Origin: Scenedesmus sp. PABB004
Lineage: Eukaryota
Length of the DNA: 64,000 nt
Assembly: GCA_014905635.1 (NCBI GenBank)
Contig: JABVCE010000003.1
Coordinates: forward strand, 248,001-312,000
Reading direction: 5' to 3'
The translations under genes were made by a program, and so were the position numbers. Of this stretch, positions 35,084 through 62,030 are shown piece after piece (position 1 is the first letter of the stretch; each line of letters opens with the position of its first letter). Below the pieces are notes generated by a model. The model saw only the letters and a program-made list of their open reading frames with translations, had not been told where the DNA came from and did not search any database.

Positions 35084-38000
35084 ATGGCGAAGCGGCGCTC
35101 CAGCACGGAGCTGGCGGCGGCGGGCGTCGAGCTTGGCGCCGGCGCCGACGGCGTGGACGTCTCCTCCGTGCGCATCACGCCCCTGGGCGCGGGCCAGGAG
35201 GTGGGGCGCTCCTGCATCATCCTGGAGTACGCGTGAGTCCGGCGTGGGCGGCGCTGTCGACGCTGTTGGCACTGCAGCCGCAGCGCCGGCGCCGGCGCCG
35301 CTGCCGCAGGCGCTGCCGGCGCGCCTGGCGCCGCCCTCGCGCCCACCCCGCCGCCGCGCCGCAGCGGCAAGAAGGTCATGTTTGACTGCGGCATCCACCC
35401 GGGCCTGAGCGGCGCCAACAGCCTGCCGTTCCTGACCAACGAGGACCTCGACGAGGTCGACGTCGCGCTCATCACCCACTTCCACCTCGACCACTGCGCC
35501 GCGGTGCCCTTCCTGCTCGCACACACCACCTTCAAGGCGCGCCCCGCCGCGCTGCACACCCCCGCGCACCGCCGCGCTGCACACCCCCGCGCCCCGCCGC
35601 CCCCCTCTCCCCCTCCCCCACCCCACCTACCCCGCGCCGCGCCGCGCCGCGCCCTTACCCTGCGCGGCGCTGGCCGCCGCCGCCCACCGTGTCGCCGCCG
35701 CCGCCGCCGCCGCCGCGCAGGGCCGCATCTTCATGACGCACCCCACCAAGGCCATCTTCTACACGCTCGTGTCAGACTTTGCGCACCTCAGCGCGGCGGG
35801 GGGCGAGGAGCCGCTCTTCACCAAGCGCGACGTCGAGGCGGCGCTGGACCGGATTGAAGTGCTCGACTTTGACCAGACGATCGAGGTCGCCGGCATGCAG
35901 GCGCGTGCGGCGCCGCGCGGCGCGAGGGGCGAGGGGCGAGCGCGCGCGCCCGCCGGCCGCGGGGGCGGCGGGCCGCGGCACCGGGCAGCCCGCGGCGGCC
36001 GCGGGGTGCGCGGGCGCGGGCGCGCGGCGCGGGGGCGTGACGACGCGGCGGCGCCGCGCCGCGCCGCGCCACGCCACGCCGCGCCGCGCAGATCACGCCG
36101 TACCGCGCGGGGCACGTGCTGGGCGCTGCGATGTTCATGGTCAACATCGCCGGCATGCGCGCGCTCTACACGGGCGACTACAGCCGCGTCACCGACCGCC
36201 ACCTGCCCTCCGCCGACATGCCGCCCGTGACGCCCCACATTGGTGTGGCGCGGCGTGGAGCGCGCGGCGCGGCACCGGCGCGGCGCGCGTAGCCAGCGCA
36301 GCGCGGCGCGCTCACCGCGCCCCGCGCCGCAGTGATCGTGGAGAGCACGTACGGCACGCAGCTGCACGGCCCGCGCGAGGCGCGCGAGCGCCTCTTCACC
36401 GAGCGCGTCGCGGCGACCGTGCGCGCGGGCGGGCGCGTGCTGGTGCCCATCGTCGCGATCGGCCGCGCCCAGGTGCGGCGCGCGGCGGCGCGCCCGCGCG
36501 CCCGGCGGCGCGCCCAGGCGCCCGGCCGCCCGCGCGGCGGCGCGGCCCGTCGCCCCACGCCCGCCCCACGCCCGCCCGCCCTGCCCCCTCCCCCAGGAGC
36601 TGCTGCTGCTGCTGGACGACTACTGGGCCCGCCACCCGGGCCTCGCGGGCGTGCCCATCTACCAGGCGAGCGGCGTCGCGCGCAAGGCGCTCAACGTGTT
36701 CCAGACCTACGTCGGCATGATGAACGACGACATTCAGGCCGCCATACAGGCGCGGCCGCCCGGCGGCGCCGCGCCCGCGCTCCGCGCAAATATCGAGCGC
36801 CCGCGCGCCGGCCGCGCCGCGCGCCGGCGGCCAGCGCGCCGACGCCGCCCGCCGCCGCCGCCCGCCCGCCGCCGCGCCATCCGCCGCCCGCCGCCGCGGC
36901 GCAGTTCCGCAACCCCTTTGCGTTCCGTCACGTGCAGGTGCTGCGCAGCGGCAGCGTGATCGAGGAGAGCGGGCCGTGCGTGGTGCTCGCGACGCCGAGC
37001 ATGCTGCAGAGCGGGCTGAGCCGGGACCTGTTTGAGGCGTGGTGCGAGAGCCCCGCCAACACGGTCATCATCGCTGACTTTGCGGTGCAGGGCACGCTCG
37101 CGCGCGACGTGCTCTCCTCGCCCACGCACGTCATGAGCCGCACCGGCGTCAAGGCGCGTCGCGCGGCGCCGCGCACGACACGTTGCGCGCCGCCGCGCGC
37201 ACGGCGCTGCGCCGCGCCGCGCTGCGCACCGCGCCGCGCCGACCCCGCTCCCGCTCCCCCGCCCGCGCCGTCCGCGCGCGCCGTGTGCGCGCCCGCGCAG
37301 CTGCCGCTGCGCTGCAAGGTCGAGGCGATCAGCTTCAGCGCGCACGCTGACTATGACCAGACGAGCGGCTTCCTCGACGAGCTGCGCCCGCGCCACGTGG
37401 TGCTGGTGCACGGCGAGTTCAACGAGATGATGCGACTCAAAAACGTGAGGGCGCAGGGTACCTGTGCAGGGCGACAGCGGCCGCCCAGCCCTCCCGCGCC
37501 CCCCGCGCCGCGCCCTGCCACACGCCGCCCCGGCCAAGCGCTGCGCCGCCGCCGCCGCCGTCGCCGCCGCCGCCGCGCAGGCGCTCGAGCGCACGGCGGC
37601 GCAGAAGGGCTGGGACCGCACGCTGCACACGCCCAAGACCGACAGCAGCATCTTCATCCCCTTTGCGCACACGCACACGACGCGCGTGCGCGGGCGCCTC
37701 GCCGAGGCGCCGCCCAAGGCGGGCGCGGCGCTGCGCGGCGTGCTGGTCGCGCAGGGCGGCGCCGACGAGCTGCTGCACCCCGCCGACCTGGCCACCTTCA
37801 CCAAGCTCACCGCGGGTGCGGCGCCCGCGCCCGCGCCTGCACCTATGCGCCCACGCGCCGCGCGCGCGCCGGGTGCGCGCCGCGGGCCTCACGCCGCCGC
37901 GCCGCGCCGTCCGACGCAGGCAAGGTGCTGCACCGCCAGGCGGTGGCGGTGAGCAAGCCGTTCAGCGAGGTGCGGCTGGCGCTGGAGGTGATGTTTGAGG

Positions 38001-42986: not shown

Positions 42987-43510
42987 GGTGGGGCGCCTGC
43001 GGCAGAGCGCGCGCGCGCGCGCCGCGCCCCCGCGCGCCGCGCCCGACGCCCGCCCCGCCCCGCGCCTGCGCCGCGCGCCGCGTCCAGTTCCTGGAGTGCC
43101 TGTTTGTGCACTACGACTTTGACGGCGCGCAGCAGAAGCTGGCCGAGTGCGAGGGCGTGATTGAGCACGACTACTTCCTGACCGCGATCAAGGCCGAGTT
43201 CCTGGAGAGCGCGCGGCTGTTTGTGTTTGAGACCTACTGCCGCATCCACCAGTGCATCAACATCGACATGCTCAGCGAGCGCCTCAACATGGACCAGGGC
43301 GCGGCGGAGAAGTGGATCGCCAACCTCATCCTCAGCGCGCGGCTGAACGCAAAGATCGACTCCAAGGCCGGCACCGTGGTCATGGGCCAGCAGAGCAGCA
43401 GCGTGCAGGAGAGCCTCGCCGAGAAGGCCAAGGCGCTCAGCGTGCGCACGTTCACGCTCGCAAACGCCGTCGTCGGCGCGCCCGCCGCCGCCGCGACCAA
43501 GGTCGCGTGA
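41556..43510 (+). CDS. EIF3E: Translation initiation factor eIF3 subunit e (INT6)
   Basis: [93 protein letters not shown]; 3 introns. Confidence 0.97.
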
Positions 43511-43667
43511 GCGGCGCGGCGGCGGGCGCCGGGGTGGCGGGCGGGCGAGGTGGGGGGCGGCGGGCGGGGGCGGGCGGGCGGGGCGTGCGCGGCGGTGCTG
43601 GCGCGCGCAGCGGGCGGCTGCGCGACTGCGCCGGGCGTGCGCGCCGCGGGCGATGCAGTTGGAGAGG

Positions 43668-43790
43668 GCGGCCGGGCGCCGCGCCGCGCTCGGCGCGGCG
43701 GCTGTGTGCGTGCCCTGTTTGCGTGAGCAGGCGCGCCCGGGCCCTCGAGTTTGCTGCGGCGGGGTCGCTGGGGTCGCTGGTGACACGCCG
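43668..43790 (+). repeat. Direct repeat A, copy 1 (downstream of eIF3e)
   Basis: Aligns with 46767-46890; shared core CCTGTTTGCGTGAGCAGGCGCGCCCGGGCCCTCGrGTTTGCTG..GCGGCGGGGT..CTGGTGACrCGCCG. Confidence 0.9.
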
Positions 43791-43830
43791 CTCAAGCGCC
43801 GCCCAACGCCGCTCAAGCGCCGCCCAACGC
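43785..43830. repeat. 21-bp tandem duplication
   Basis: ACGCCGCTCAAGCGCCGCCCA x2, located at the A/B junction. Confidence 0.9.
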
Positions 43831-43834
43831 GCCC

Positions 43835-43896
43835 CCCAGCGCGGCCCGCACGCCGCCGCCCGCGACCGAGCAGCCGCCCCGCTCCGCTCAGCCCTC
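43835..43896 (+). repeat. Direct repeat B', degenerate copy of the RME-8 stop codon and proximal 3' UTR
   Basis: CCCAGCGCGGCCCGCACGCCGCC (23 nt) is identical to 50099-50121, followed collinearly by GCCGCCCC-GCTCCGCTCAGCCCTC versus GCCGCCCCAGCTCGCCTCAGCCCTC (50149-50173). Confidence 0.7.
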
Positions 43897-43903
43897 AGGG
43901 GGA

Positions 43904-43937
43904 CGGTCTCACCAGCGGCTGCGGTCTCACCAGCGGC
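43904..43937. repeat. 18-bp tandem duplication
   Basis: CGGTCTCACCAGCGGC(TG) x2. Confidence 0.9.
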
Positions 43938-44190
43938 GCGCGGGGTTGCGCCGGCGAGTGTGACGGTCAGGCCGCGGCGGCGCCAGATCCAGCCCGGCCG
44001 GCGATCGAGGGCCACTCCCTGTCCGCAATCTCAGTGGCGCGGGCATCCCTAGCTCGCCGCTGATGGTCCTTCTGGCCCGCTGTTGAGGAGGGCGCGCCTC
44101 TCGCGCCCTGGCCCCGCTGTTTGCCGCTGGCCGCACCCGCGGCCGCGGTTCGGATCGGAGGGGCGGGCCAGGCAGCAGTAGGAGCCGGAG

Positions 44191-46704
44191 ATGGTGCGCC
44201 GCAGCGCGGCGGCGGCGCGAGCGGCGGCGCGCGGGCCGCCGAATGCAGCCCGCCGCCGCTCCCCGGACTCCACGAAGGCATCCACGGCGGCCAGTGCGGG
44301 CGACGCAGGCAGCGGGCCGCCGGCGCCCGCCGCAGCCCACCCGCCGCCCGCCGCCGCTGCCTGCCCGCCGCTGGTCGCCCCGCGCCCGTGCGCGCAGATG
44401 CCGGCGGCGCCAGGGGCGCCGGCGGCGGACGCCGACGTCGTCGTGGAGGTGGCCGACGCGGGCCTCCCCGGCTGGCGCAGCGACCCCAAGTCGCTGTCGC
44501 TGCCCGGGGCGCACGCGAGCGTCCCGCTGCCGGCGGCGGGCGCGCCGCGCTGGCGCATGGCGCTCAGCTATGTCGGCATCGGCGCGACCGTGGCGGTGGG
44601 GTACATGGAGTGCGTGCCGCCGCGCCGCACGCGCGCGCGCAACGCGGCGTGGCGGCCGCGGCAGCGCGCGCCGAGGCCCGGCCCCGGCGGCGCTCACGCG
44701 CTCACGCGGCTCCGCGCGCCCCGCCGCGCGCCGCGCGCGCAGCCCCGGCAACTGGAGCACGGGCCTCGCCGGCGGCGCGCGCTACGGCTACGCGCTGCTG
44801 TGCGTGGTGCTGGCGTCGAGCGCGTTTGCGGTGCTGCTGCAGCACCTCTCGCTCAAGCTCGGCGTCGCGGCGGGGCGGGACCTCGCGCAGGCCTGCCGCG
44901 ACGCGTACCCGCGGTGGGTGCGCGCGCCCGGCGGCCACGCGGCCAGCGCGGCGCGGCTGCACGGGACCCGGCGCGGCGCGCAGCGCGCTCCGCGGCGCTC
45001 ACGGCCCGCGCGCGCCGCAGCTGGGCGGTGTGGCCGCTGTGGGTGCTGGCCGAGGTCGGCATCGCGGCGACCGACCTGGCGGAGGTCATCGGCGCTGCGG
45101 TCGCGCTGCGCCTGCTCACGGGCATGCCGCTGTGGGCGGGCGTGCTCATCACGCTCGGCGACGTCGCGCTGCTGCTGCTGCTCGAGGGCCGCGGCTTCCG
45201 CTGGCTCGAAGCCTTTGTGATGCTGCTCATACTCTTCATCTTTGGCTGGTGCGCCCCCGCCGCGCGCGGCGCCAGGGCGCGCCAACACGCGGCGCCAGGG
45301 CGCGCCAGCGCGCGCCGCGCGCGCCCGGCTGGCAGCGGCGCCGCCGCGCGCGCCGCGCGCGCCGCGCGCGCCCCGCGCCCAGCGCGCGCCCCGCGACGCA
45401 CACGCCGCCCGCCCGCGTGCGCGTGCGCCCGCGCGCAGCTTTGTGTATGAGCTCGCCGCCGCGTCGCCGGCGTGGGGCGACGTCGCGGCCGGGCTGCTGC
45501 CGCGCGCGTCGCTCTTCACCGACCCGGGGCAGCTGTTTGTCGCCATCGGCATCCTCGGCGCGACCGTCATGCCGCAGTGCGCCGCCGCGGCGCGCGCGCA
45601 ACGGCCGCAGCGCGGGCGCCAACGCGCGCCCTGCGCTCACCGCGCCCCGCCCCTCCGCCCGTCCGGCGCGCGCAGCAACCTGTACCTGCACAGCGCCGTC
45701 ATCCAGACGCGCGCGTTCCCGCGCACGCGCGCCGGCCGCGCATCGGCGATCCGCTACGGCGGCGTGGACAGCGCGCTGAGCCTGGGCTTTGCGTTTGTGG
45801 TCAACGCCAGCATCCTCATCCTCTCCGGCGCGGCCTTCTTCTACAGCGCCCACCCCCACAGGCGCGGCGCGGCGGCAGCGCGGCGCCAGCGCGGCGCGGC
45901 GGCGCGGCGGGCGCGCGCGGTGCCCCGGCCGCGGCCCGCGCGTGCGCGCGCCCACGACGCGGGCGCGCCGCGCAGGGAGGGCGTGGACATCTCCGACGCG
46001 TACCTGCTGCTGTCGCCGACGCTCGGCGCGCGCGCGGCGTCCATCGTGTTTGCGCTCGCGCTGCTCGCGGGTGCGGCGGCGGCGGCGCGGCGCGGCGCGG
46101 CGCGGCGCGGCGCAGCGCGGGGCGGCGCGGCGCGGCGCGGGGCGGCGCGGCGCCCCGTCTCGGCGGGGCTGGGCGTGCTCACGCGCCCGCCGCCGCCGCG
46201 GCCGCGCGCACAGCCGGGCAGAACTCAACGGTCACCGGCACGCTGGCGGGTCAGGTCGTCATGGTGCGCGCGCCGCCGGGGTGCTGGGGCCCCCGTGCTG
46301 CCGCCGAGGCGGCCGCCGCGCGCCGCGCGTCACAGCCGCACCCCCCTCGCCCGCGCCCGCGCCCGCGCCCGCAGGAGGGTTTTGTGCACATCCGCCTGCG
46401 CCCCGCGCCGCGCCGGCTGCTCACGCGCAGCGTCGCGGTCGTGCCGGCCGTTGTCGTCGCGGCGGTGCTCGGCGACCACGCGGTGGGGCAGCTGCTCGTG
46501 GTGAGCCAGGTCGTGCTGAGCATGACGCTGCCCTTTGCGGTGTGGCCGCTCATCCACTTCACCTCGGCCGCCAAGTTCTGCGGCCCCCACGCCAACAGCC
46601 GCGCCACGACCGCCGTCGCCGCGGGCGTGGCGGGCCTGATCACCGGGCTAAACGCCTACCTCCTCGTCGCGCTGCTGCGCGACCCGGCCGCGGCGTTTGC
46701 GTGA
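44191..46704 (+). CDS. NRAMP/MntH-type divalent metal (Mn/Fe) transporter
   Basis: Spliced product has [66 protein letters not shown] and [16 protein letters not shown]; 8 introns; alternative start at 44398. Confidence 0.95.
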
Positions 46705-46766
46705 CGGGCAGCGCGCGGCGCGGCGGAGCGCGGCGCGGCGTTGCGGAGCGCGGCGCGGGCTGGCGA

Positions 46767-46890
46767 GCGGCCGGGCGCCGCGCCGCGCGCGGCGCGGCAG
46801 CTGTGTGCGCGCCTGTTTGCGTGAGCAGGCGCGCCCGGGCCCTCGGGTTTGCTGGCGCAGCTGCGGCGGGGTTCCACTGGTGACGCGCCG
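46767..46890 (+). repeat. Direct repeat A, copy 2 (downstream of NRAMP)
   Basis: Matches 43668-43790 with a few substitutions and small indels. Confidence 0.9.
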
Positions 46891-47173
46891 AGCAGCCCGT
46901 GGTGCCGCCGCGCCGCCGCCGCGCAGCCAGCCCGCCGGGCAGCGCCCCGCAGGGGACCACGCCTGGCTGCTCCCTGGGCAGCTCCGGAGCTGGCGGCGGC
47001 GCGCTGGGTGCGGCGGCGCGGTTCCGCCAAACCCCGCTGCGCCGCCTCAGTAGCTGCGCGCCTCCCGTGCGCTCGCTCAGAGCTGCTGCCAGCAACCTGT
47101 CGGCGAGCTCCTGACGACGCTGTGACACTCACCACACCCGCCACACCCGACTGCAGCACTGCTGTCGAGCGAG

Positions 47174-49928
47174 ATGCTGTCCACCGCACGCGCGGCGCGC
47201 GTGGCGCTCGCGGCGGCCGCAACCAGCGCGTCTGTGCTTCGTTTTATCCGTCAGCGCTCGCGGGTGCGTCGGGGGGCAGGGCAGCGTTCCGCTCCCAGAA
47301 GAGTGCGGCGACCGACGAGCGCGTGCTCCAGCCCGCGAGCTCTCCTTGCTCGCGCCCGTAAAAAGCGCAGCGCTTGCATTCCACGAGCTCCCAGGCCGCA
47401 GGCAGAACGCGCAGCGCGGCCGCGCGGCGGCGCGGCGTCTTGCTAACCCTTTCTCGCGCCGCTTTGTTCCGCAGGTGAGGGCGCGCGAGCTCGCCGAGCT
47501 CTCAGCTGCTGAAGACGAGGAGCGCGCGACGCGCGAGGCGGCCGTGCGCGGCCTGGTCGCAGGCGCGGTTGCCAAGGCGGTGGCGCAGGTGCCGCCTCCC
47601 CGCCGCTCGAGCCGGCCCCACGGCGCGGCCACGCCCGCGCGGGCGCCCTGCCAGCTCGCGGCGCGGCTCACGCGCGGCGCCCTGGCGCGCGCGGCGCAGG
47701 CGGAGCACGAGGCGGCGCAGGCCGCGGCGGCCGAGGAGCTGGAGCGGCGCCTGGTGTGCGGCCAGGCGGCCAAGGCCGCGGTGGCGGCGGTGGTGGCGGC
47801 GCAGGTGCGGGGCGGCACGGCACGGCGCGCGGCACGGCGCCCAGCCCCTGGCGCCGCCGCGCTCACGCGGGCGCTGCACCGCGCGCTGCGCGCCCAGGTG
47901 CACGACGCCAGGCTGGCGGCGCTCGGCGCGCGCCTCGCTGCCAAGGACGAGCGGCTCGCAAACCTGACCGAGCAGCGCGACGGCTGGCGGGTGCGCCCCG
48001 GCGAGCGCGGGCTGGCTGGCTGGCAGGGCCAGTGCCTGCCCAAGGCTGCCGCTGCCGCCGCCAGCCCTGCGCGCTCACGCCGCCCGCCCGCCCGCCGCCG
48101 CCGACATGCAGGCGCGGAGCGCCGACCTGGCGGCGCAGGCCTATGACCTGCGCGTGATGTACGACCGCCGCGCCGTGGCCGACGCGGCCGCCGCCGAGGA
48201 GCGCGCGGCGCGCGAGGTGGCCGTGCGCGGCCTGGTCGCGGGCGCGGTCGCCAAAGCGGTGGCGCAGGCGGAGCACGAGGCGGCGCAGACCGCGGGCGCC
48301 GAGGAGCTGGAGCGGCGCCTGGTGTGCGGCCAGGTGGCCAAGGCCGCGGTGGCGGCGGTGGTGGCGGCGCAGGTGCGGGGCGGCAAGGCGCGGCGCGCGC
48401 GTGGCGCCCAGCCCCTGCCGCCGCCGCGCTCACCCGGGCGCTGCACCGTGCTCTGCGCGCTCAGGCCCAGGACACGCTCAGCGCGCGCCTCGCCGCCAAG
48501 GACAAGCGCCTGGCCGACCTGACCGAGCAGCGCGACGGCTGGCGGGTGCGCCGCGGCGAACGAGGGGTGGCTGGCAGCGCCCCAGCGCCTGCCTAAGGCT
48601 GCCGCTGCCGCCGCCAGGCCTAGGCAGGCCTGTGCGCTCACGCCGCCCGCCCGCCCGCCGCCGCCGACCACGCAGGCGCGGAGCGCCGACCTGGCGGCGC
48701 AGGCCTACGACCTGCGCGTGATGTACGACCGCCGCGCCGTGGCCGACGCGGCCGCCGCCGAGGAGCGCGCGGCGCGTGAGGTGGCCGTGCGCGGCCTGGT
48801 CGCGGGCGCGCTCGCCAAGGCGATGGCGCAGGTGCGGCCGCCGCCTCTTGAGCCGCCCCCACGGCGCGGCCACGCCCGCGCGGGCGCCCTGCCAGCTCGC
48901 GGCACGGCTCACGCGCGGCGCCCTGGCGCGCGCGGCGCAGGCGGAGCACGAGGCGGCGCAGACCGCGGGCGCCGAGGAGCTGGAGCGGCGCCTGGTGTGC
49001 GGCGAGGTGGCCAAGGCCGCGGTGGCGGCGGTGGTGGCGGCGCAGGTGCGGGGCGCCACAGCACGGCGCGCGGCGCGCGTGTGGCGCAGCCGCCGCTGCG
49101 CTCACCCGGGCGCTGCACCGCGCGCTGCGCGCCCAGGTCCAGGACACGCTCAGCGCGCGCCTCGCTGCCAAGGACAAGCGCCTGGCCGACCTGACCGAGC
49201 AGCACAATGGCTGGCGGGTGCGCGGCGGCGAGCGCGGGCTGGCTGGCTGGCAGCGCCCCAGCGCCTGCACGAGGCTGCCGCTGCCGCCGCCAGCCCTGCG
49301 CGCTCACGCCGCCCGCCCGCCCGCCGCCGCCGAGCCGCAGGCGCGGAGCGACGACCTGGCGGCGCGCGCAGACAAGCTGCACGCGCTGTATGAGCGCCGC
49401 GCGGCGGCCGACGCGGCTGCCGCCGAGGAGCGCATCAGCGCCATCAGCACGGCGTGCGCGGGGGCCGTGCGCCGCATGGTCGACGACACACTGGACAGGA
49501 AGGCGGCGCGCGACGCAGCGCTCGCTCGCGCGCGCGCGTCGCACGAGGACTGCGACAGCCCCCGGAGCGCCGGCAGCACCGGCAAGCTGGCGACGGGCGA
49601 GCTGGCCCCCGCCGCGACCCACCGCGCCGCCGGAGCGGCGGCGATGGCAGCCTGCGCCGGCCTGGCCACGCGCGCCGCGAGCAAGGGCCGGGCCGCCTGG
49701 GCGGCGGCGTCCGAGCAGCCAGGCAGCCCGGGCACGCCGGCGAAGCGGAGCTCCTCCGAGAGCGACTGCTGGTTCGCCGGCAGCGGCACGTGGCGCGCGG
49801 GGCTGGCCAGCAGGAGCAGCAGCGGCCGGCGCCAGTCTCACAGCGGCGGCGGGCACGCAGGCGGCGTGGCCCCCGCGCAGGCGGCAGCTGCCGTCGCGGC
49901 CGCCAGCGCCGCCATGGTGGGCGCGTGA
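47174..49928 (+). CDS. Orphan helical/coiled-coil protein built from tandem exon-intron block duplications (~114-aa unit)
   Basis: ATG 47174; exon 1 ends 47263 (donor GTGCGT); intron has a GCTAAC branch site and acceptor at 47474. All later exons are phase 0 and open (ARSADLAAQAYDLRVMY..AVRGLVAGAVAKAVAQ|AEHEAAQ..VAKAAVAAVVAAQ|..LAAKDKRLADLTEQRDGWR); stop at 49928. Confidence 0.7.
47517..49431 (+). repeat. Tandem ~560-670-bp units (47517-48111 partial, 48112-48675, 48676-49340, 49341-49431 partial)
   Basis: Both exons and introns are recognisably homologous between units. Confidence 0.92.
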
Positions 49929-50164
49929 GGCGGCGGGAGTCGTCGGGAGCCGGCAGGCCGAGGCTACGCGTGCGTGGTGGCAGCACTGGAGGGCGCGCGC
50001 GCTGTGTGGGGATTTGGGCTGCTGCGGCAGGCGCCAGGGCGGGTCGCGCGGGCGCGCGTGCACAGGAAACGAGAGAGGTTGCACCCCCTCTCCGCCAGCC
50101 CAGCGCGGCCCGCACGCCGCCAGCCGCCGCCGCCAGCGTGCGCGCGCGGCCGCCCCAGCTCGCC

Positions 50165-53100
50165 TCAGCCCTCGGGCGCGGGGAGCGCGAAGCGCGCGGT
50201 GTCGCCCGCGGTCAACAGCCCCACGACGCCCGACTCTGGCGTCGCGCCCGAGGGCAGGAACATGTCGTGCCGCTGGTCGCGGTACGCCGCCCACACCGCG
50301 CTGCCCGCCAGCGCCGCGCCGACCTGCTCCCCGTACGTGCCCTCCTCGGCCAGCAGGCGCAGCACGTCCACCGCGAGCGCGCGCTCCACCGCCGCCTCCT
50401 GCTCGCCGGCGCCGGCGCCACGCCCGCCGGCGCCGGTCCCCTCCCCGCCCGCCTCGGCGGCGTGTCCGCCGCTGCGCCAGTCGAGGCGCGCGAGCAGGCG
50501 GGCGGGCATGCCCGCGCTCAGCGCCTGCGCGACGAGCGTGTCGCGCTGGCGGTTGGCGGGGCTCAGCGCGCGCTTGAGCGTCTCCAGCACCAGCAGGCTC
50601 GCGCCGTGGCCCCACGCCATCGCCGCCGCGAGCGTCGGCACGAGCGGCGCGCCCGCCGACGCCGCGAGCGCCTCGGCCGCGCCCGGCGACGCCGCGAGCG
50701 CGTGCAGCAGGCGCAGCACGCTGCCGCCGAGCTCGTCGGGCGGCGCGGACGCAGTCAGCCCCGCCGCGCCTGGCGGCGCGCCGGGCGGCGGCGCCGGGAT
50801 GCGCGCGGTGCGGCCGGCGAGCAGGCCCAGCAGGCGGCCGGCGTAGCCGAGCTGCGCCACGTGGTCGGCGAGCAGGCCGTGCCCCGCGAGCAGCGCGACC
50901 GCCGCCGCGGAGAGCAGCAGGCAGCGGTCGGCCGCGCGGCGCGCGCCCTCGCCGCCGGCGCACGCGGCGCGCAGCTCGGCCAGGTAGCGCTCCGCCAGCG
51001 CCTCGGCAAACGCGGCGGGGTCGCGCACGGCAAAGGTGGGGTTCTTCAGGTACAGCCGCACGTAGACGCCGCCCACAAACAGCTCGTCCGCGAGCCCCGC
51101 GCACGCGGCGGCGGCGCCCGGCGGCGGCGCCCACTCGTACGCGCCGCCCGCGTGCGCGCGCCGCACGCCCGCCGCGAGCGCCGCGACCTCGGCCGACGCG
51201 GCGGCGGCCATGCGGCCGTCCCACAGGCACTCGGGCGTCTCCACGGTCTGTGGCGCGGGCGGGGGCAAGCTAGTTTGAAACGCGGGGGGGGGGGGGGCAT
51301 TGGCGCGGCACGCGGCGGCCGCGGCGCCCCGCACGCACCTGCGCCAGCGCGCGCAGCACCGCCTCGGGCGGGCCCTCGGCGATGGTGGCGACCAGCCCCG
51401 GCGGCAGCAGCTTGCCCAGCAGCAGGCTCACGCGCGGGCCGTGCGTGGGCTGCGCCAGCAGCGCGCGCAGCACGTCAGCCGCCGCGGCGCGCGCGGGCGC
51501 TGCCTCCGCGTCCGCGTCGGCCGCGTCGCCGCCGGGCCAGGACCAGCTGCGGGTGCGGCGGGGGGCGGCGGGGCCTCAACCGGGGCGTGCGCGAGCGCCG
51601 CCGCCGCGCGGCGCGCAGCGCCCAGCCCCAGGTCGGCGCCGGCGCCGCCCCGCCTGCGCAGGCGCGCGCAGCCCCCTGCCGCCGCGCACCTGCCGCTGTG
51701 CAGCAGCACCGACAGCAGCAGCACCGCGCCGCCCTGGTAGCCGGCGACGCTGGCGGCCAGCGGCGAGCCGCACAGCCGCCGCAGCAGCGCGAGCGCGCCG
51801 CACAGCACGCGCGGCGAGGGCGGCTGCACCGCGAGCCAGAAGAGCTGGCGCAGCAGGCCCTCGTCGGTCAGCGCGTCGGTGACCGCCGCGTTGGCCGTCG
51901 CGCGCGCAAGCAGCGCCAGCCCCAGCGCCGCGAGCTGCTCCGCCGTCGCCGCGAGCGCGGCGGCCTCGGCGCTGCCCGGCGCCGGCGCGCCGCCGGCGCC
52001 GGCCGCGCCGCCGGCCGCGTCTGAACCGCCGCCGCCGCCGCCGGCCGCGGCCGCCTCGTAGAGGGGCGGGAAGGTCGCCGCGGCGGGCGTGACGCACGCG
52101 ACGAGCGGCGAGAGCGCGCTCTTGTTGGACAGCAGGCCGAGCAGGCGGGGCTCGGCCTCGAGCAGGCCGCCCAGCGCCGCCACGACCTCCAGAACGTCAC
52201 CGACCTCGCCGCCCGGCAGCAGGTGCAGCTCGCGGCCGCGGAAGCAGCGCTCCACGAGGCGCTCGTACAGGAAGCGCACGAGGGCCTTGCAGAACCCTGC
52301 GGGGTCGGACGGCTGCCCGCCGCCCGGGCCGCCGGGCGCGCCCGCCGGCGCGCCGCCCGGCGCGCGCGGCGCGACGCCGCCCGTGGCCGTCGCGGGCGGC
52401 GCGGCGGGGCCGCCGGGCGCCGCCGCGGCCGCGCCGCCGGGCGCGGCGGCGGACGACGTCGCGGCGGTGACGGTCGCGTTGCTCGCGTTGGCGCCGCTCG
52501 CGCCGCGCTGGTTGAACACGCGCACAAACACGCCGCCGACCTGCAGCTCGCCCGCGAGGCTGGTGAAGGCAAAGCCGGTCAGCGCGGCGAGGTCGGGCCC
52601 GCGCGCGCGCTGCGCCGCGAGCGCCTTGCTCAGCTCTTCGCGCATGCCGCTGTTCCAGATGACCTGCGCCGTCTCCATGCTGCTGTTGAGGCACGTCAGC
52701 AGGCCGCGCGGGTCGGGGTCGGCGAGGCGCGCCGCGAGCGACTGCGTGAGCAGCGCGGCCAGCGCGCCGGCCGCCGCGTCGTTGCGCGGCGTCGCGTGCG
52801 GCTCGGGCAGCACGCCTGGCGCGCGGGCGGTCGGTCGGCGCGGCGCGGCGCTGGTCAGCGGGGGCGCCGGGGGGAGGGCAGGGGCGGGCGGCGCGCGGCG
52901 CGCGGCGCGCGGCGCGCGGCACCACCAACTAGCCCAGGCCGCCAGCCGCCGCCCCCCGCGCACCTGCGAGCCGCGCCAGCGCCTGCGCCGCCAGCAGCGC
53001 GTGCTGGCTGCGCGCCTCCTGCATGTTGGGCCGCACGAGCGCGCTGTCCAGCAGCCGGAAGCCTGCCAGCGCGTCGCCGCCGCCGGCCGCCCGCGCGGGC

Positions 53101-56100
53101 GCCGCCGGCGGCGCGGGCACGAGCGCGGCGGCCAGCGCGGGCGCGAGCGCCGCGGCCGGCCCCGCGCCGCCGCCGGGCGCCGCGCCGCCGCCGTCGCCCG
53201 CGCCGCCGCCGCCGGCGGCGCCGGCGGCGCTGAAGGGCAGCGCCAGGCGCGCGGCGGCCTCGGCGGAGAGTGTGACATCATACTCCAGCAGCAGCGGCAC
53301 CACGTGCGGCAGCACGCCCACCTCCAGCAGCGCCTCCTGCAGCGCCGGCGCCGCGGCGAGGTGGCAGATGGCCACCAGCGCCGCGTCGACCGCGGCGGGC
53401 GCGCGCTGCAGGCCGCAGCACCTGCGCGGCGGCGGCGGCGGTTGCTCGGGCGGCGCGCGGGCAGGCGGCGCACGGGCGAGCGGCGCGCAGGCGGGCGGGC
53501 GGCGCGCGCCGCCGCCCCCGCGGCCGGGCCGGCGCGGGCTCACTTGACGATGTCGGCCACGAGCTGGCGCTGGCCCGCGATGTCGCGGCGCGCGGGCTCG
53601 ACCCCGGCGAGGCCGGCGAGGCTGCGCAGGGCGTGGGTGGTGATGACGGCCTCGGGGCTCGTGGGCGCCGCGTCGAGGGGCAGGATGCCGACGCACCTGG
53701 CGGGGGCGGGGGGGGGGGGGCGCGTGAGCGGCGCGGCAGCGCGGGCTGCACAGGCGGCGGCGGCGGCCGCACAGGCGGCGGCGCCGCGGCGAGCAGGCTC
53801 ACCGCGAGAGCAGGCCGGCGAGCAGGGGCAGGCCGCCGCTGCGCAGCAGCTCCTCGGCGTTGCGCCGGCTCGCCACGCACGTGAGCCAGCACAGCTCAAT
53901 CGCCGCGAGCACCTGGCCCACGCGCTCGCCCGACAGAAAGTGCCCGCCGCCGCCGCCGGCGCCGCCGCCGGCGCGCGCGTCGTCGCCCTCTGCTGCTGCA
54001 GCGCCGCCCTCCGCGGCGCCCCCCTGCGCCGCCGCGCCCGCGGCGCCGGGCGCGCCCGCCTGCGCCTGGCGCAGCACCTCGAGCAGCTGCGGGTAGCCGG
54101 CGTACTTGAAGGGCGCCAGCGCGGCGCCGTAGCGGCGGAAGAGGATGCACTGCGCGCGCAGCATGAGCAGTAGGCGCCACGCCTGCGGGCCCTGCCCGCC
54201 CGCCGCGCCGGCCTGCAGGCGCTCGTACGCGCGCTGCACGGTGAGGAAGCGCGCGCGGGCCTCGGGGCTGGGGTTCTTGTCGGGGTGGAACCTGCGGCGC
54301 CGCGGCGGCGCACAGGCGCGGGCGCGGGCGCGCGGCGGCGGCGCGGCGGTGGGTGCGCGGCGCGGCGGGGCCGCGAAAAAGCGCACAACGGGGCCGGGCC
54401 CGTCTCCCGCCCCAGGGCGCGGTCGCTCACTTGCGCGCGAGCGCGCGGTACGCGCGGCGCATGTCGTCCTCCGCCACGACGCCGCCGGGGCCGGGGGATA
54501 GCTCGAGCGCCTCGCACGCCTGCGCCTCCGACATGGCCAGCGGCTGCCGCGCCAGCTCGGCGCGCCACTGCTCCATGAGCGCCTGTGGGCGGTGCGGCGC
54601 GGCGCGGCGCGGCGGTTCGCGGCGGGCGCGGGCGGCACCGGGCCGAGGCAGCCGCCGCGCGGCGCGCGCGGGCACCTGCAGCAGCGGGATGTGGTCCACG
54701 ATGGGCCAGCCGGCGAAGCGCTCCTCGTCGCAGAGGTTGCGCAGGTAGTACCTGGCGGTGGGCAGGAGGAGCGGCGCGGGGCAGGGGCGGGACCATTAGG
54801 GGGCAGGAGCGTGGCCGCGAGAGCGCGGGCGCGGCGGCGGCGCGGCAGGCGCGGGCGCGCGGCGGCGCAGGGCTCAGCCCGCGGCCGGGGCCCCAGGCGC
54901 CGCGCCGCACCTGTGGCACCACACCTCGTCGCCGAGCTCGGGCCAGGCGAGCGGCGGCGGCGGCGTGTACTCGTACACCGCGTGGCAGTGCTGCGAGAGG
55001 CGGTGGGGGAAGTCGCCGAGGTGCTGCACGGCGCGGCGGGCGCGGGGGGGGGCGGGGCGGGGGCGGGCGGGCGCGGGGCGCGGGGCCGGGGCGGGGGCGG
55101 GGCGGGGGCGGGCGCGGGGGCGGGGGCGGGGCGGGTCGGCCGAGCGCGGCGCGGCGGCGGGCAGGCGGGGCCTGCGCGCGGCGCGCCGCCAGCCGCGCGG
55201 CCGCACCTGCAGCATCGCCGGGATGAGGCGCTGCTGGCGCATCGCCGCCGTCCAGACGACCTCAGGCGTGTCGTGGTCGCCGGCGAGCGCCGCGGCAAAG
55301 ACGCCGCCGCCGTAGCTCTCCAGCAGGTGCAGCAGGCTCTCCGGCAGCAGCGCGCCCAGGTAGCTTCGCTGCACGAGCGGCAGCCCCGCCGTGAGCTCGG
55401 CGGGGCCCCTGGCGGGCGGGCGGGCGGCGGCGCGGCGCGGCGTCGGCGTCGGCGCCAGCGGGGCGGCGGCGCGCGCGGGGCTGCGACGCGCCGGCGCCGC
55501 ACCTGAACGCCTGGCCGAGGTGGACGACCTTGAACAGCTCGGCCAGCTCCTCCAGGTTGCTGCCGCAGTAGGCGAGGCCAAAGATGAAGGCGCCGCTGAG
55601 GTAGAGGCGCGACAGCGCGGCGGGATTGTGCGCGAGCACGGTCGTCAGCAGCGCCGCGGCCGCCGACACGAGCGCCGGCTCGCCTGCGGCGGCGGCGCGC
55701 GCGGCGGAAGGGGCTGGGCGGTGGACAGGGGGGGGGCGCTGGGCAGGCAGGCGGCGCCGCGCAGCCGCCGCGGCCGCCGCGTCGTCGTCGTCCCGCCGCG
55801 CTCGCACCGGTGAGCATGACCTGGACGATGTGCGGCAGGCAGGCCGGGTCCGCGAGCCCCCGGTGCGCGCGCGGCAGCGGCTGCAGCACGCTGCCGTGCT
55901 CGTCCACCGCCGGCTGCAGCAGCGCGAGCTGCTGCAGGATCTTGAGCGCGACGAGCGCGGCGTCAAAGGGCCCCAGCAGGCCCAGGCCCGTGCCGCACAT
56001 CCAGCGCAGCTCGCGCACGCGCCCGAGCTGCGCCGGCGCGGCCATGCCGGCCGCCCACACATGCGTCGCGTCGCCCAGCACGCCGCGCGCGTGCAGGTGG

Positions 56101-59100
56101 CGCAGCGCCTCCTTGCTCAGCGGCCCCGCGCGCCCGCTCTCGTCCGGCCCCGGCACGCGCTCGTCGCCCACGACGTACGCCGGCTCCGCGGTGCTGGCCT
56201 GACTGCCAGCCTCGCCGGCGCGCGCCTCGTCGCTGCCGGCCGCGCCCGGCGCCGGCGCTGGCGCCGGCGGCAGCGCGCCGCCGTCGGGGCGCCAGCCGTG
56301 TGGGTAAAAGTACCACTCCTTTGGCGCGGCGGCGTGGCTGATGCTGGTGATGAGGTGACCCGCGCCCGCGGACGCCGCCGCGGCGGCGCCGCCGGCGCCC
56401 GCCGACGCGAGGCGGCGCTCGCTGCACTCGTGCGCGCCTGCGACAAAGTCGACGAGCAGCTCCAGCCCGCCCGCGTCCATCAGCGCGTAGCCGTTGGCCT
56501 GCGCCGCGCGCACCGCGGCCGCGAGGCCGGGCGGGGCGGCGGCGGCGCCGCCGCCGCGCGCGGCGCGCCGCCGCCCGCGACGTTGGGCAGGCCGCCGCCG
56601 CCGCGGGCGCCGCCGGGCGCCGCGCCGCGCGCCGCCGTGGCGGCGGTCGGCGGCGCGAGGTCGCCGGCCGCGCGCGGCGCAATGAGCGCCTGCAGCAGCA
56701 GCAGCAGCCCGTGGCGCAGGCTGCGGCGCGGCGTGGCGTCGAGGAGCTGCAGCAGGTGCGCCACGCCCTCAAACGGCCCGATCGCGCCCGCGTGCGCGCT
56801 GTAAGCCGCGGCCATGGCCTTCACGCACAGCTGCTGCGTGATGCGAGCGCCGCCGGGCGCCGACGCCGCGTCGCCGTCGCCGTCGCCGCCGGCGTCGGGG
56901 CAGGCCAGCAGCGTGTGGTAGCAGGCGTTGAAGAACTCCCGGGGGCTGGCCAGCTTGTCCACCGCGGCTGCGCGCGGCGCGGCGCGTGGCGGCGGCTGGG
57001 CACGCCGTGCCGCGCTGCGCTGCGCCGCGCAGAGCGTGCGCCGCGCGCCGCGCCGAGCGCGGTGTGCGCACCCGCGTCGCCGCCCTCGAGCAGCAGGCGC
57101 ACGTAGACGCCTCCGATGCAGAGCTGGCTGGCGGTGCTCGGGTAGCGCACGGAGAACTCAGCCCAGTTCCAGCTCGGCCAGCCGCCGCCGCCCTGCCGGG
57201 CGAGGCGTCGGCGACGGGGCGCGCGGGTGCTGGTGAGGCGCGCCGGCCGCGCGCCAGGCGGCGCGCCCGCGCGTGCGGCTTGACCGGCGCCCCGTCGGGA
57301 GGGCCGGCCGGCGCACCTTGGCGACGCGCGTGCGTGCCGCGCGCAGCCCGGCGAGCTCGCGCTCCAGAGCGTCGCGCAGCTCGCGGCGCGTGGACTCGTT
57401 CCATATGAGTCCCGCGTGGCAGTGGTCGCGCGCCGCGGCCGCCCACAGCGCCGGCCAGTTGCCGCGCAGCCCGCCGGCGGCCTGCGCGCACGCGGGGCGG
57501 CGGGGCGGCGCGGGAGGGGCAGCGCCAAGCGTGAGCGCCGGCGGCAGCTCGCTTGCCGGGCACGCAGCGGGCCCCCAGCGCGCTTCGCACCGCGGGCAGG
57601 ACGGGCGGCCTGTGGGCAGGGCTGGGCCCGGCCGGCTGCTGCGGCGGCGCCTGCTGCGCCTGCTGCGCGCTGCCGTCGGCAGCTGCCTGTGCGCCAGCGG
57701 TCGTTGCCGCATGGGCGGTGCCGTTGGCAAGGGCCTGCTGCGGGGCAGCTGACCCCGGCGTCACCGCGCCCTGCGGCGCTGCGCCGCCGCCGCCGCGGCG
57801 GCAGCGGGGGCGGCCAGCGGGTCGCTGCTGGCCGCCGGCGCACCGCCGCCGGGGCCAGGCCCCGGTGCCACCAGCGGCGCGGCCGCGGGCGGTGCCGGCG
57901 CCGCAGGTGCCGTGGGCGCTGCCGCCCCGGGCGCCGCCGCCGGCTGCTGCGGCTCCGTGGGCTGCGGCGCGGGCTGCAGCGCGGGCTGCGGCGCCGCCGG
58001 CTGCGGCGCTGGCTTGAGCGCTGGGGCTGGCTGGGGCTTGGGCACGCTGAGGTAGCGCAGCAGACCGGGCGGCAGGACGCGGCGCAGCAGGCCCAGCGCC
58101 GGGCCGTACTCGTCCGCCCAGCTCGCCACCAGCTCCTGGCTCAGCTGGGCCTTGTCGCCTGCGCGGAGCGGCGCGGTGAGCGGCGCGTCGAGGCGCGGCG
58201 CGCCGAGGCGCGGCTGCGGCGCGGGCGGCGGCACCCTCGCCCCGCGGCCGCTGCCCCTCCGCCCTCCGCCGCGCACCCGAGCTGAAGAGGGCAATGCTGA
58301 GGTGGTGCAGGAGCGCGCCCTCGCGCAGCGCCGCGTCGCGCATGGGCGCTGCCGCCGCGGCGCCGCACTCGGCAATCGACCGCATCAGCACCGCCGCGCC
58401 GTCCGCCACGCGCGCCGCGGGGTGCGCAAACAGCTCAAACAGCGGCCGCCCGAGCGCCGCGGCCGCGCGCAGCGCCGCGTCCTGCAGCGAGGCGTCGGTC
58501 GTGCGCGCCCCGGGGTCTGGCGGGCGCGGCGGCAAGCGGGCAAGCGGCGGGCGGCGGCGCGTGAGCTGGCGGCGGCGGCGGCGCGCGCGGGGCCGACGCC
58601 CCGGCCGCCCCGCAGCCGCCCGGCCCTCACCCACGGCCAGCGCGGTGACGACCTCCAGCAGGGCCATGGCGGTCAGCGGCGCCGCGCCGCCCGGGCGCGC
58701 GAGCGGCGCGAGCAGCACTGCCAGGCGCTCGGCCGCGAGCTGGGGCGGGAAGGCGAGGAGCTTGGCGGCGCGTGCGAGCGCGTTGTCCTCGCGGCTGTTG
58801 GTCAGATAGAGCTCCTCCCCGCCCAGCGGCGCGGCGCCTGGGCGCGCGCGGGGCGGCGGCCGGGGCGGCGGCCGGGGCGGCGGCCGGCCGGGTGTCAGCG
58901 GGAGCCCCGGCGCGGAGCGAGCCGAGCCGTGCCGCGGCGCGCGCACGCGCTGCGCCGCGCCGCCGGGCCTGTCCACCCCGCGCTCACCGCGCAGCAGGCG
59001 CCAGGGCGGCGCGCCGTGCCGCGCAGGCGCGGGCGCGAAGAGCCGGACCAGCAGGCGCGCCGCCTCGGCGGCGACGTGCTCGCTGCCGCAGGCGAGGCAC

Positions 59101-62030
59101 GCCCACACGCGCGCGAGCGCGACGGGCGCGGCCAGCACCTGCTCCGCCATGTGCGGGTGGCTCGCGAGGCGCTGCAGGCAGTGCAGCACCGCCACCGCCT
59201 GCGCGTGCGGCGGCGGCGGCGACGGCGCGGGGCGGCGCGGCGGCGTGCGCGGGCGCCTCGGCGTGCTGGCGCGGCACTGGCCCCGCCGGCGCGCGCGCGC
59301 GGCGGGCGGTGCCGCGCCTGCTTGATGTCGTCCGGCGCCAGCGCCGGCGCGGCCAGGCCGGGCTGCAGGTCCTCCGGGAGCAGAGCGAGCACCGCGACGA
59401 TGGCCTGGGGGTCGAGCTCGCAGCCCTCGCCCGCGACAAGCGAGACGCCCGCGTAGGGCACGCACGCATTGAACTCGTACACGCACTCCAGCATAACGTT
59501 GGCCGCGTCCTGCGCGCTCAGCGCCTCGCCCGGCGCGCCGCCGCGGTGCGGCGCGCCCGCGCCGGCGCCGCCGCCGCCGCCGCCGCGCGCCGCCGCGGCG
59601 GCCGCAGCGGCCAGCGACGGCGGCGCGCCGCCGCCGCCGCCGCCGCCAGGGCTGGCGGCGAGGTCGGGCAGCGCGGCGCGGCTGGCGCGCGGCGAGGAGC
59701 TGAAGCTGATGTGGCTCTGCGGGGTCGGGCACGGGGTGTGGGTGAGCTCACCCCCGCGCGTGGCATGGCACGGGGCACGCAGCGTGCGCGGCGCGCGCCT
59801 GGTAGAAGAGGCTGGACGAGCCGTTGAGCGCCGGCGCGACGTCGCGCCCGCGCGCGCTCAGCTCCGCGACGTACAGGCGCGTGAGCTCGGGCTCGGGCTC
59901 GCTCGCGGGCGCGTGGCTCGCGTGCTTGTGGTCGGTGATGACCACGTCGCCGGGGCAGGTGAAGCCTGCGGCCGCGGCGCCAAGGGCGGCCAAGGGCACG
60001 CGGGCGTGACGGGCGAGCGGGCGAGCGGGCGCGGCGGCGGGCGGGGCGGCGGGCGCGGCGGCGGCACGGGGCTCACCAGGCATGACCGCGATGGGCCGCC
60101 CCGCCGCCGCCTGCGCCGCGCCGAGCACGGCCGCGAGCACGGCGTCGCGCGCGGGCGTGACAAACTGGCTCGGCGCCGCGCCGTCCTCCCACTCGACAGC
60201 GAGCAGCTTGGGGTCGTCTGCGGGCGCGGCCGTGCCGCGCACGCGTGTGCGCGGGCAGGCTCCAGCAGCTGCGCGGGCCGAGGGCCCGCGCGGCGGCAGG
60301 ACGGGCGCGCTGCCGCCGGCGCCGGCGCCGCACCCGCAAAGCGCACGAGCGCCGCGACGGCGCTGAGCGGGCGGCGCGTGACGACGTCGTGGCTGTCCAC
60401 GCGGCGCGTGATGAGGCTGCTGGGCGTGACCACGAGCCGGCGCGCCACCGTGTTGGCGCCTGGACCGGCGCGGCGCCGCGGCGGCGCTGCTGTGAGCGCG
60501 CAGCGGGCGCGCGCGCGCCGCCCGCCGCCGATCGCGCCCCCGCCCCGTCCGGCGCCCGCACCCGCCGTGACCAGGACGTCAGCCATGCCCGCGAGCGCCT
60601 CCAGGCTCAGCTTGCGCGCCGACTGCGCTGGGCTGGCCTGCAGCAGCTGCGGCGGCAGCAGGTCGGCGCGGCCGCGCAGCGCCTCGACCTCCCACTGCCC
60701 GAGCGGCGCCTCGCCCGCCTCGCTGCTGCTGCTGCGCTCCGCGAGCAGCACCGCCTCCAACAGCTCCTGCAGGCTGGTGCGCGCCGAGCCGTCAACTGCG
60801 GGCGTTCAGGCGCGCGGCGGGGCGGCGTGGGCGGCGGCGCCGACAAGGCCGCGCGGGCGGGCACGCGGCGCGCAGCCGCCGCCGCGCCCACTCACGTGTG
60901 ATGTGCGTGGCGAGCTTGCTGCGCGCCGCCGCCTGCAACTGCGACAGCAGCGCGTCGCGGCCGCGCAGCGCAAACACGCGCGGCGTGCTGCGCCCGAGGC
61001 GCGTCATCACCGCAAACACGCCGCCCTGCGCCGCCGCCGCCGCCGCCGTCGCCGCAGCGGCCGCGTCCGCGCCGCCGGCGCCCCCGCCGCCCGGCGGCGC
61101 TGGTGGCGGCGCGTAGGGCGCGAGCAGCATGATGCCGGGCGAGGACAGCCGCGCGTAGTCGCACCGCCACTTCACCGCGCCTGCGGCCGGCGGCGCGGCG
61201 GACAGCAGTTCTTCGTGCGGGGCGGCAGAGGCCGCCGCGCGCCCGGCGCGGGGCTGCGACGGGCCGCCGCCGCGCCGCGACGGGCCGCCGCCGCGCCGCC
61301 ACGCGCGCGCACCGGTCGCAGGGTCGAGCGACTCCAGGCCGTACGCCGTCACGCGCAGCTTGATGGGCTTCCAGCAGCCACCGCTGCGCGACCACTTGAC
61401 CGCCGCGTGGTCGTGGTGCGGCCTGCGCGCGGCGCGGGCGGCGTCGGCCCCACTGCCGCCGCCGCCGCCGCCGTCGCCGCCGCCGTCGCCGCTGGCGGGC
61501 GTGCCCACCCGAGCACGCGCGCCGCGACCGCGCAGCGCCCCATCGCCGACGCCGCGGCCATGCATTGGAAGAGGTCCGTCAGCAGCAGCTGCCGGTGGCG
61601 GCACGTGAACTTGAGCGGCTTGAACTTGCTCTGCGCCGCGGCGCAGGGCAGGCGCGGCGCGGCGCGGCGCGCATCGCCCGCGGCGGCGGCGCTCGGGGCT
61701 CCTCTGCTGCCCGCGCGCCGCGCGGCGCCGCGCGCGCGGCGGCGCCGCGCCGCGCCGCCGTGTCACCTTTTTGTCCTGGCGCGCGGTGATGACGAACTCA
61801 AACTCGTCCGCCCCGAGCGCCACGCTCTCGATGTCCGAGTCGCCGGCAAAGGCGTACGAGTTGGTGAGCAGCAGCGTGCGCTCCGGGTTTTGCGTGTGCA
61901 CCGCGCTCGGGGTGATGCAGAAGATGCGGCGGTAGCGCTTGTACCAGGCGTGCTTGGTCGTCACGTAGCGCGCGAGGCAGTCGGGCGGCTTCAGCTCCGG
62001 CCGCGCGCGCCGGCCGAGCAGGCGGTCCAT
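50165..62030 (-). CDS. DNAJC13: RME-8 / GRV2 / DNAJC13 endosomal J-domain protein
   Basis: LARYVTTKHAWYKRYRRIFCI..TNSY N-terminus; IWN-type repeats (LIWNESTRRELRDAL, VVWTAAMR, VIWNSGMREEL, CLWDGRM); GYF2-like KEWYFY..GPLSKEAL; WCHRYYLRNLCDE; J domain FHPDKNP; FKYAGYP; GGVYVRLY; YRDQRHDMFL. More than 25 introns. Confidence 0.96.

Follow-up and report, generated by a model that had tools for sequence, protein, structure and literature searches.

Direct repeats around a gene-sized insert are a familiar product of DNA transposons, long terminal repeat (LTR) elements, Helitrons and Pack-MULEs, whose target-site duplications typically span a few bp. We analyzed a locus with a similar outline in the green alga Scenedesmus sp. 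PABB004, in a window of 64,000 nucleotides (GenBank assembly GCA_014905635.1, contig JABVCE010000003.1, positions 248,001 to 312,000 of the forward strand; "the window" hereafter denotes this whole stretch, and positions are counted from its first letter). In this window, the genes for eIF3e and RME-8 are separated by an NRAMP gene and an orphan gene. A direct repeat follows eIF3e (copy A) and NRAMP (copy A'), and a shorter sequence beside A, termed B', resembles the end of RME-8 (termed B), so that the order is eIF3e, A, B', NRAMP, A', orphan, B and RME-8, the last on the minus strand. Compared with transposon target-site duplications, these repeats are long (123 bp, or ~230 bp with B'), and they are accompanied by neither a transposase domain nor terminal inverted repeats. 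We tentatively read the patch that follows eIF3e (43668-43940, 273 bp) as a mosaic scar of error-prone break or replication repair, a reading that includes a reduced form limited to A and A'.

Closer parallels come from break repair in plants. Filler DNA is found at plant end-joining junctions (PMC8395108), and such templated insertions, formed by polymerase-theta-type or synthesis-dependent microhomology-mediated joining or by template switching, share with this locus pieces placed in series from donors in cis, duplications at the joints and the lack of a transposase (PMC7407515, PMC8395108). At 123 bp, with donors at 3.1 and 6.3 kb, the copying proposed here would lie at the large end of the range described in the available parts of these sources. 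In rice, tandem, partly tandem and ectopic short duplications of 10-1000 bp have been attributed to staggered nicks followed by end joining (PMC7407515 section 4.3). Within the available part of that source, this is the published mechanism nearest to the long target duplication invoked by a preliminary description of the present locus. Here, in contrast, 3 kb and a whole gene separate the copies, and the host is a green alga.

Vaughn and Bennetzen are said to have described, in 2014, natural rice insertions that form tandem or ectopic short duplications, and Wicker et al. reportedly described, in 2010, non-collinear gene insertion by double-strand-break repair in grasses. Among the rice insertions analyzed in the Oryza brachyantha genome study, 41 of 56 lacked a transposon signature (PMC3615480), as do the breakpoints at this locus. 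Unlike the present locus, the grass cases rest on donor, acceptor and ancestral sites, and the available part of the Oryza study describes no target duplication of hundreds of bp (PMC3615480). The three main mechanisms that we weigh below (a repair scar, a long target duplication, and tandem duplication followed by deletion) are each of a kind already described in plants. The scenario of the preliminary description, even if right, would therefore add a further example to a known kind without introducing a new mechanism.

A two-copy repeat and a mosaic patch after eIF3e

The preliminary description had reported A and A' as direct repeats of ~120 bp, and our alignments agree. A blastn comparison identified an 89-bp core (43668-43756 and 46767-46854) with 94.4% identity (E 4.9e-32), and a global alignment over the full extent of the two copies (123 and 124 nt) matched in 108 of 125 columns. 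Self-comparison of the window by blast returned 22 non-self rows at E<=1e-8; four of these fell within tandem repeats of the orphan gene and 17 were low-complexity GC repeats, which leaves A/A', with just two copies, as the sole dispersed repeat in the 64 kb whose complexity is normal. Outside the orphan, the window contains 106 exact shared runs of at least 23 nt, and the longest of them is a 34-nt exact run in the A/A' core. We found no homology past the ends of A and A' (score 36, against a null mean of ~33 for another, similar-sized pair of regions). An exact 26-nt pattern from the core of A had 0 matches in metagenome contigs and prokaryote genome collections, which is weak evidence. A search of A for structured RNA gave no Rfam match at E<=1, and fold z-scores at the locus were close to zero (0.08, 0.16, 0.57 and -0.12).

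The relationship between B' and B is less secure. The two share an exact 23-mer (at 43835 and 50099), and the sequence GAG GGC TGA of B, in which the last exon of RME-8 (translation ...FALPAPEG) reaches its stop codon, recurs as an identical 9 nt in B'. The preliminary description had cautioned that the 23-mer alone is indecisive at this GC content, and the 106 comparable runs, nearly all of them (GCC)n or microsatellite-like and a handful not, bear out this caution. The proposal that B' is a copy of B fared better when the surrounding sequence was included. A Smith-Waterman alignment of 43791-44000 with 49929-50250 scored 70, a value above every one of 1000 dinucleotide shuffles (mean 33.2, max 68) and above all 772 real tile-strands from the window (max 62). 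In the reverse search, the best match of B in the window was B' (70, with the next at 63, among 1264 tile-strands; Gumbel p ~1.5e-3 per tile). The two are reciprocal best matches that exceed all shuffles and tiles, but the margin is slim (70 against 62-68). In the global alignment, 59 of 78 columns matched with four gaps, and the highest-scoring path was not even in the register of the 23-mer. An extension of B' further into the RME-8 coding sequence was within the null. From these comparisons, we rate the homology of B and B' as probable, with about two chances in three.

The patch as a whole consists of A, a 21-bp unit in 2.2 copies, B' and an 18-bp unit in two copies, A being 123 bp and B' ~65 bp long. 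A and B' stand 45 nt apart, and this gap consists wholly of the perfect 21-bp duplication. Both the 21-bp and the 18-bp duplications had been noted at the junctions before, and both were recovered here, the former by Tandem Repeats Finder (TRF) and the latter as a pair of exact 15-mers (Table 1). The 21-bp unit has no evident donor, as its sole other match in the window carries three mismatches, and comparisons with A' and B revealed no counterpart beyond the null. TRF also indicated that small perfect tandem repeats are common throughout the region.

No signature of a transposon was apparent at the locus. Among 50 open reading frames of at least 90 aa in the six frames of 43511-50165, we detected no transposase, reverse transcriptase or integrase domain, the only matches being to Nramp (four open reading frames). 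Four end-to-end reverse-complement comparisons for terminal inverted repeats were within the shuffle null. On both counts, the preliminary description had reached the same result. No target duplication was found to flank the orphan (score 16, null mean 21.5), and self-comparison of the window revealed no second copy of NRAMP or of the orphan.

Table 1. Positions of the repeats, tandem duplications and genes at the locus.
Feature	Position	Strand	Description
A	43668..43790		begins 157 nt past the eIF3e stop; ends 401 nt ahead of the NRAMP ATG
A'	46767..46890		begins 62 nt past the NRAMP stop; ends 284 nt ahead of the orphan ATG
B'	43835..43899		partial copy (probable) of the end of RME-8: last two codons, stop and proximal 3' untranslated region (UTR); 23-mer plus collinear block
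B	50099..50175		RME-8 proximal 3' UTR (50099-50164), stop (50165-50167, minus strand) and last codons
9-bp tandem duplication	43761..43780		in A, absent from A'; TRF period 9, 2.2 copies, 100%
21-bp tandem duplication	43785..43830		between A and B'; TRF period 21, 2.2 copies, 100%
Tandem duplication, 18-bp spacing	43905..43940		just past B'; exact 15-mer at 43905 and 43923; 0 expected in shuffles
eIF3e, last exon and stop	43088..43510	+	Pfam PCI, E 8e-16; 92% identity to Tetradesmus obliquus eIF3 subunit E
NRAMP (MntH-type)	44191..46704	+	open 8-exon model, 538 aa; Pfam Nramp on three exons
Orphan gene	47174..49928	+	10-exon model, open 557-aa frame, GT-AG introns
RME-8 / GRV2	50165..62006	-	Pfam RME-8_N at 61749-62006; 100% match to NCBI GRV2, 2817 aa

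Origin of the patch

In the reading that we tentatively favor, the patch is not the footprint of a gene transposition. A break in the spacer between eIF3e and NRAMP would have been repaired by synthesis that switched between templates on the same chromosome, namely A' and B, which lie 3.1 and 6.3 kb downstream in direct orientation, and slippage duplications would have been added in the same or later events. Such a course would require no transposase and no movement of a gene; we infer the repair mechanism and do not claim it as shown. If the similarity of B and B' is due to chance, the patch would reduce to a single ectopic duplication of ~120 bp, copied in either direction. Both candidate donors are located in cis, less than 6.5 kb away and in the same orientation and order, with B/B' the marginal member of the pair. 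Rice insertions of 10-1000 bp include short duplications whose ectopic donors often lie at several locations (PMC7407515 section 4.3). A junction scar between eIF3e and RME-8 is also plausible because the interval between these genes is rearranged or reduced relative to Tetradesmus, as described below. A repair scar also calls for one complex event, as opposed to two gene arrivals and a prior adjacency of eIF3e and RME-8.

Several observations weigh against a repair scar. In the available parts of the sources, described templated insertions are mostly shorter than 123 bp and their donors are usually closer than 3-6 kb (PMC7407515, PMC8395108). By eye, microhomology at the switch points amounts to no more than 1-2 nt, at boundaries made indistinct by divergence and low complexity. 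The units of the microduplications match at 100%, compared with 86-94% for A/A' and ~76% for B/B', so they may be younger and the product of unrelated slippage; perfect small tandem repeats are, moreover, common in this region. The order of A and B' mirrors that of A' and B, which is also exactly what the duplication of an A-B spacer would produce. The pattern, with A and B' ahead of NRAMP, A' behind it and B beyond the orphan, is one whose order and orientation three routes produce alike.

One of these routes is the relocation set out in the preliminary description, which we regard as doubtful. As spelled out here, eIF3e and RME-8 were convergent neighbors with an A-B spacer between them, NRAMP inserted with a staggered-break duplication of ~230 bp that comprised A and B, and the orphan later arrived between A' and B; NRAMP would have brought ~295 bp of upstream and 62 bp of downstream sequence, and A' would have served as its ready-made 3' end. 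The order and orientation of the repeats fit this account. B' ends two to three codons into the RME-8 coding sequence, which is compatible with a staggered cut, just 62 nt of NRAMP's own 3' flank precede A', and the distribution of NRAMP is perhaps patchy, although the evidence for this (no named green-algal ortholog among 73 matches) is weak. Gene movement by break repair without a transposon is documented in Oryza, at least in the available part of that study (PMC3615480). The route nevertheless requires that two genes arrived independently in one spacer of ~370 bp; no duplication was found to flank the orphan, and neither A' nor B holds a counterpart of the 21-bp unit. Much of the argument is carried by B/B', which is marginal, and by our reading a UG-rich stretch resembling the poly(A) region of RME-8 lies to the left of B and was not duplicated. 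Gene order in relatives also speaks against it, since eIF3e and RME-8 are 36-39 locus tags apart in both Tetradesmus assemblies and neither RME-8 nor NRAMP follows eIF3e in a metagenomic relative (see below). The duplication, its order and orientation, and the lack of a transposase and of terminal inverted repeats stand from the original account, whereas the adjacency that it predicted in relatives was not borne out, and the relocation is unproven. We consider unlikely the fuller claim that intron-bearing genes were relocated without a transposon, that the ~230-bp spacer duplication gave NRAMP the 3'-end signals of eIF3e through A', and that the orphan's entry into the same spacer marks a hotspot of gene arrival.

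The same order and orientation would follow if, in an ancestor with eIF3e, NRAMP, A, B and a convergent RME-8, the NRAMP-A-B segment was duplicated in tandem with its right breakpoint 9 nt inside RME-8, and the upstream NRAMP was then deleted to leave A and B', the orphan having arrived or expanded later between A' and B. Tandem duplication and the loss of a redundant copy are common events, and they would be at home in a strongly reduced genome of 39.8 Mb and 7,092 genes (PMC12571836). We rate this course as quite unlikely, as it requires three events in addition to the entry of the orphan, and no remnant of the deleted copy was apparent to the left of A: the score of 43511-43667 was 28 against the NRAMP upstream region (null mean 28.2) and 42 against the NRAMP 3' end (null mean 46.8). 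It is improbable, in turn, that A is a dispersed short element or a regulatory module (a 3'-end signal or promoter) shared by many genes, with B/B' a chance match. The two copies are indeed similarly spaced from the preceding stop codons (157 and 62 nt) and the following ATG codons (401 and 284 nt), and CTGTGTG is confined to the plus strand of the window, with five sites, of which three fall in the 3' flanks of the genes for eIF3e, NRAMP and the orphan. Yet there are only two copies of A in 64 kb, the 3' flank of the orphan does not hold a third, no structured RNA was found, and the exact-pattern scans described above were empty, which is a weak argument; the published repeat content of the genome, 1.31%, also speaks against such an element (PMC12571836). 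That the whole pattern is an assembly artefact or a chance similarity is hardly credible, given the E value of A/A' (4.9e-32), the divergence of the copies (86-94% identity, neither collapsed nor identical) and the agreement of the gene order with three consecutive GenBank protein accessions.

If the patch is a repair scar, the locus would illustrate, in an ordinary but clean way, the reshaping of short spacers by break repair in a strongly reduced, extremely GC-rich algal genome, and would indicate that a gene can acquire short 3' UTR segments from its neighbor by copying. If instead the relocation route were correct, transposon-free gene movement would extend from the grasses to the chlorophytes, with a long target duplication providing a functional 3' end. 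In both cases, the locus offers a good test for whole-genome comparison and for comparison with close relatives.

Gene order around eIF3e and RME-8 in relatives

According to the preliminary description, related chlorophytes should carry eIF3e next to RME-8. In Tetradesmus obliquus, we found them linked instead. One assembly carries eIF3e (OEZ86_000524) and RME-8 (OEZ86_000485) on a contig of 8,847,849 bp, 39 locus tags apart, and a second assembly carries them (OEZ85_010574 and OEZ85_010538) on a contig of 7,636,537 bp, 36 locus tags apart, the shared contig being deduced in each case from equal contig sizes. The four-gene order of the window was likewise not seen in T. obliquus. Judged by this comparison, rearrangement or reduction of the eIF3e-RME-8 interval relative to Tetradesmus is clear. 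The relatives compared are too distant to refute a short-lived adjacency of eIF3e and RME-8 in the lineage of Scenedesmus sp. PABB004.

A metagenome scan with the last exon of eIF3e identified 20 loci, of which only one, L001 (65% GC, 75% identity), has long flanks. With 18 peptides from the window as queries, L001 gave no match to RME-8 or NRAMP peptides, and none was present within 10 kb of eIF3e. Its eIF3e is followed ~5 kb downstream by a convergent CPSF3-like gene (L001:15699-20333), the homolog of which is located upstream of eIF3e on the same strand in the window (35718-37459). This difference in placement suggests that an inversion or transposition breakpoint adjoins eIF3e in one of the two lineages. 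Two further loci with high GC content have shorter flanks: L014 (71% GC) keeps the upstream neighbors of eIF3e and stops inside this gene, and L020 (72% GC) extends 528 nt past the eIF3e stop. To see whether A descends from the 3' UTR of eIF3e, we compared the repeat with the 3' flank of eIF3e in L020. This flank scored 52 against A', a value that none of 2000 shuffles reached but that real tiles of the window surpass (up to 55), and scored 27 against A itself. A search of prokaryote genome contigs with the last exon of RME-8 gave 585 pattern matches, none of which was confirmed.

Records for Volvox africanus place both eIF3e (Vafri_3839) and RME-8 (Vafri_4396) on a contig of 4,514,952 bp. The pair, linked in Tetradesmus as well, may share a chromosome across a long evolutionary distance, although this could be chance.

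Gene models and a possible role in 3'-end formation

The window has a GC content of 79.6%, and its genes are intron-rich and eukaryotic in structure. The published genome of Scenedesmus sp. PABB004 is described as strongly reduced and comprises 39.8 Mb at 78.5% GC, with 7,092 genes and 1.31% repeats (PMC12571836). The identities given earlier to eIF3e, NRAMP and RME-8 were supported by Pfam matches (PCI, Nramp and RME-8_N) and by named homologs. Translations of the exons are 100% identical to the proteins TIF3E1 (KAF8069421.1), mntH (KAF8069422.1) and GRV2 (KAF8069423.1), whose accessions are consecutive and belong to one contig of 1.84 Mb, and homologs of eIF3e carry PF09440 together with PF01399. 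The stop codons are located at 43508-43510 (eIF3e), 46702-46704 (NRAMP), 49926-49928 (orphan) and 50165-50167 on the minus strand (RME-8), and the genes are separated by spacers of 680 nt (eIF3e to NRAMP), 469 nt (NRAMP to orphan) and 236 nt (orphan to RME-8).

Both A and A' contain, within the 89-bp core, a UG-rich sequence of the form CTGTGTG...TGTTTG. The core may survive as a 3'-end signal for eIF3e and NRAMP, and it is possible that A' supplies NRAMP with a ready-made 3' end. CTGTGTG is present at 43702, 46801, 50002, 8484 and 14323 on the plus strand of the 64-kb window, and the first three of these sites are 70-200 nt past the stops of eIF3e, NRAMP and the orphan. TGTAA, the chlorophyte 3'-end signal, is absent from 40-52 kb, and CTGTGTG may act as a 3'-end signal in this very GC-rich alga. 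A promoter role for A and A', given their distances to the next ATG, is possible as well. The 3' flank of the orphan was considered as a third copy of A and rejected (score 22, null mean 24-26), as it shares just CTGTGTG with the repeat.

With its seven introns, NRAMP is not a retrocopy. Among 73 matches, its sole close relative is P0004, a transcript-like protein of 506 aa (61%), and besides the organism's own protein no named green-algal ortholog is present among them; an absence of this kind is weak evidence. The nearest named relatives, the organism's own protein aside, are bacterial MntH proteins with ~45-52% identity over the last exon (e.g. Desulfovibrio, Methylacidiphilales). NRAMP nevertheless has seven introns, and it shares an N-terminal extension with P0004, so any transfer would be old. 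An apparent GC-AG intron is present at 45862-45975 (donor GCGCGG); with this intron spliced out, the length of NRAMP agrees with that of P0004 (...GTSGEHRRSVDIQDAY), whereas the public mntH model retains it as 38 extra residues rich in Arg and Ala.

The GenBank model of this gene (P0003, 'mntH', 1147 aa) joins NRAMP and the orphan into one protein (44191-49928). P0003 passes from ...GLNAYLLV to RARELAEL..., omitting the NRAMP C-terminus, the NRAMP stop, A' and exon 1 of the orphan, and it also translates through several introns. In our 8-exon model, the C-terminus of NRAMP aligns to the end of P0004 (residues 490-500 of 506). Because the omitted C-terminus aligns in this way, the fusion of NRAMP and the orphan is probably an annotation error. 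Users of the public annotation should be cautious, as it joins NRAMP across A' to an unrelated repeat protein.

Neither of two exons of the orphan had a Pfam match, and its last exon (195 aa) had 0 matches at E<=0.001 among 1.84 billion cluster representatives. The protein contains three repeats of ~114 aa, encoded by DNA repeats of 555-680 bp that are 87-88% identical. An intron of ~110 nt is present in repeat copies 1 (47589-47699) and 3 (48832-48940), and copy 2 is without it (48268/48269). Exon 5 (261 nt) equals the sum of exon 7 (156 nt) and exon 8 (105 nt), and the repeat periods are 568 and 673 nt. As judged from these models, this is a case of precise intron loss or gain within a young tandem repeat.

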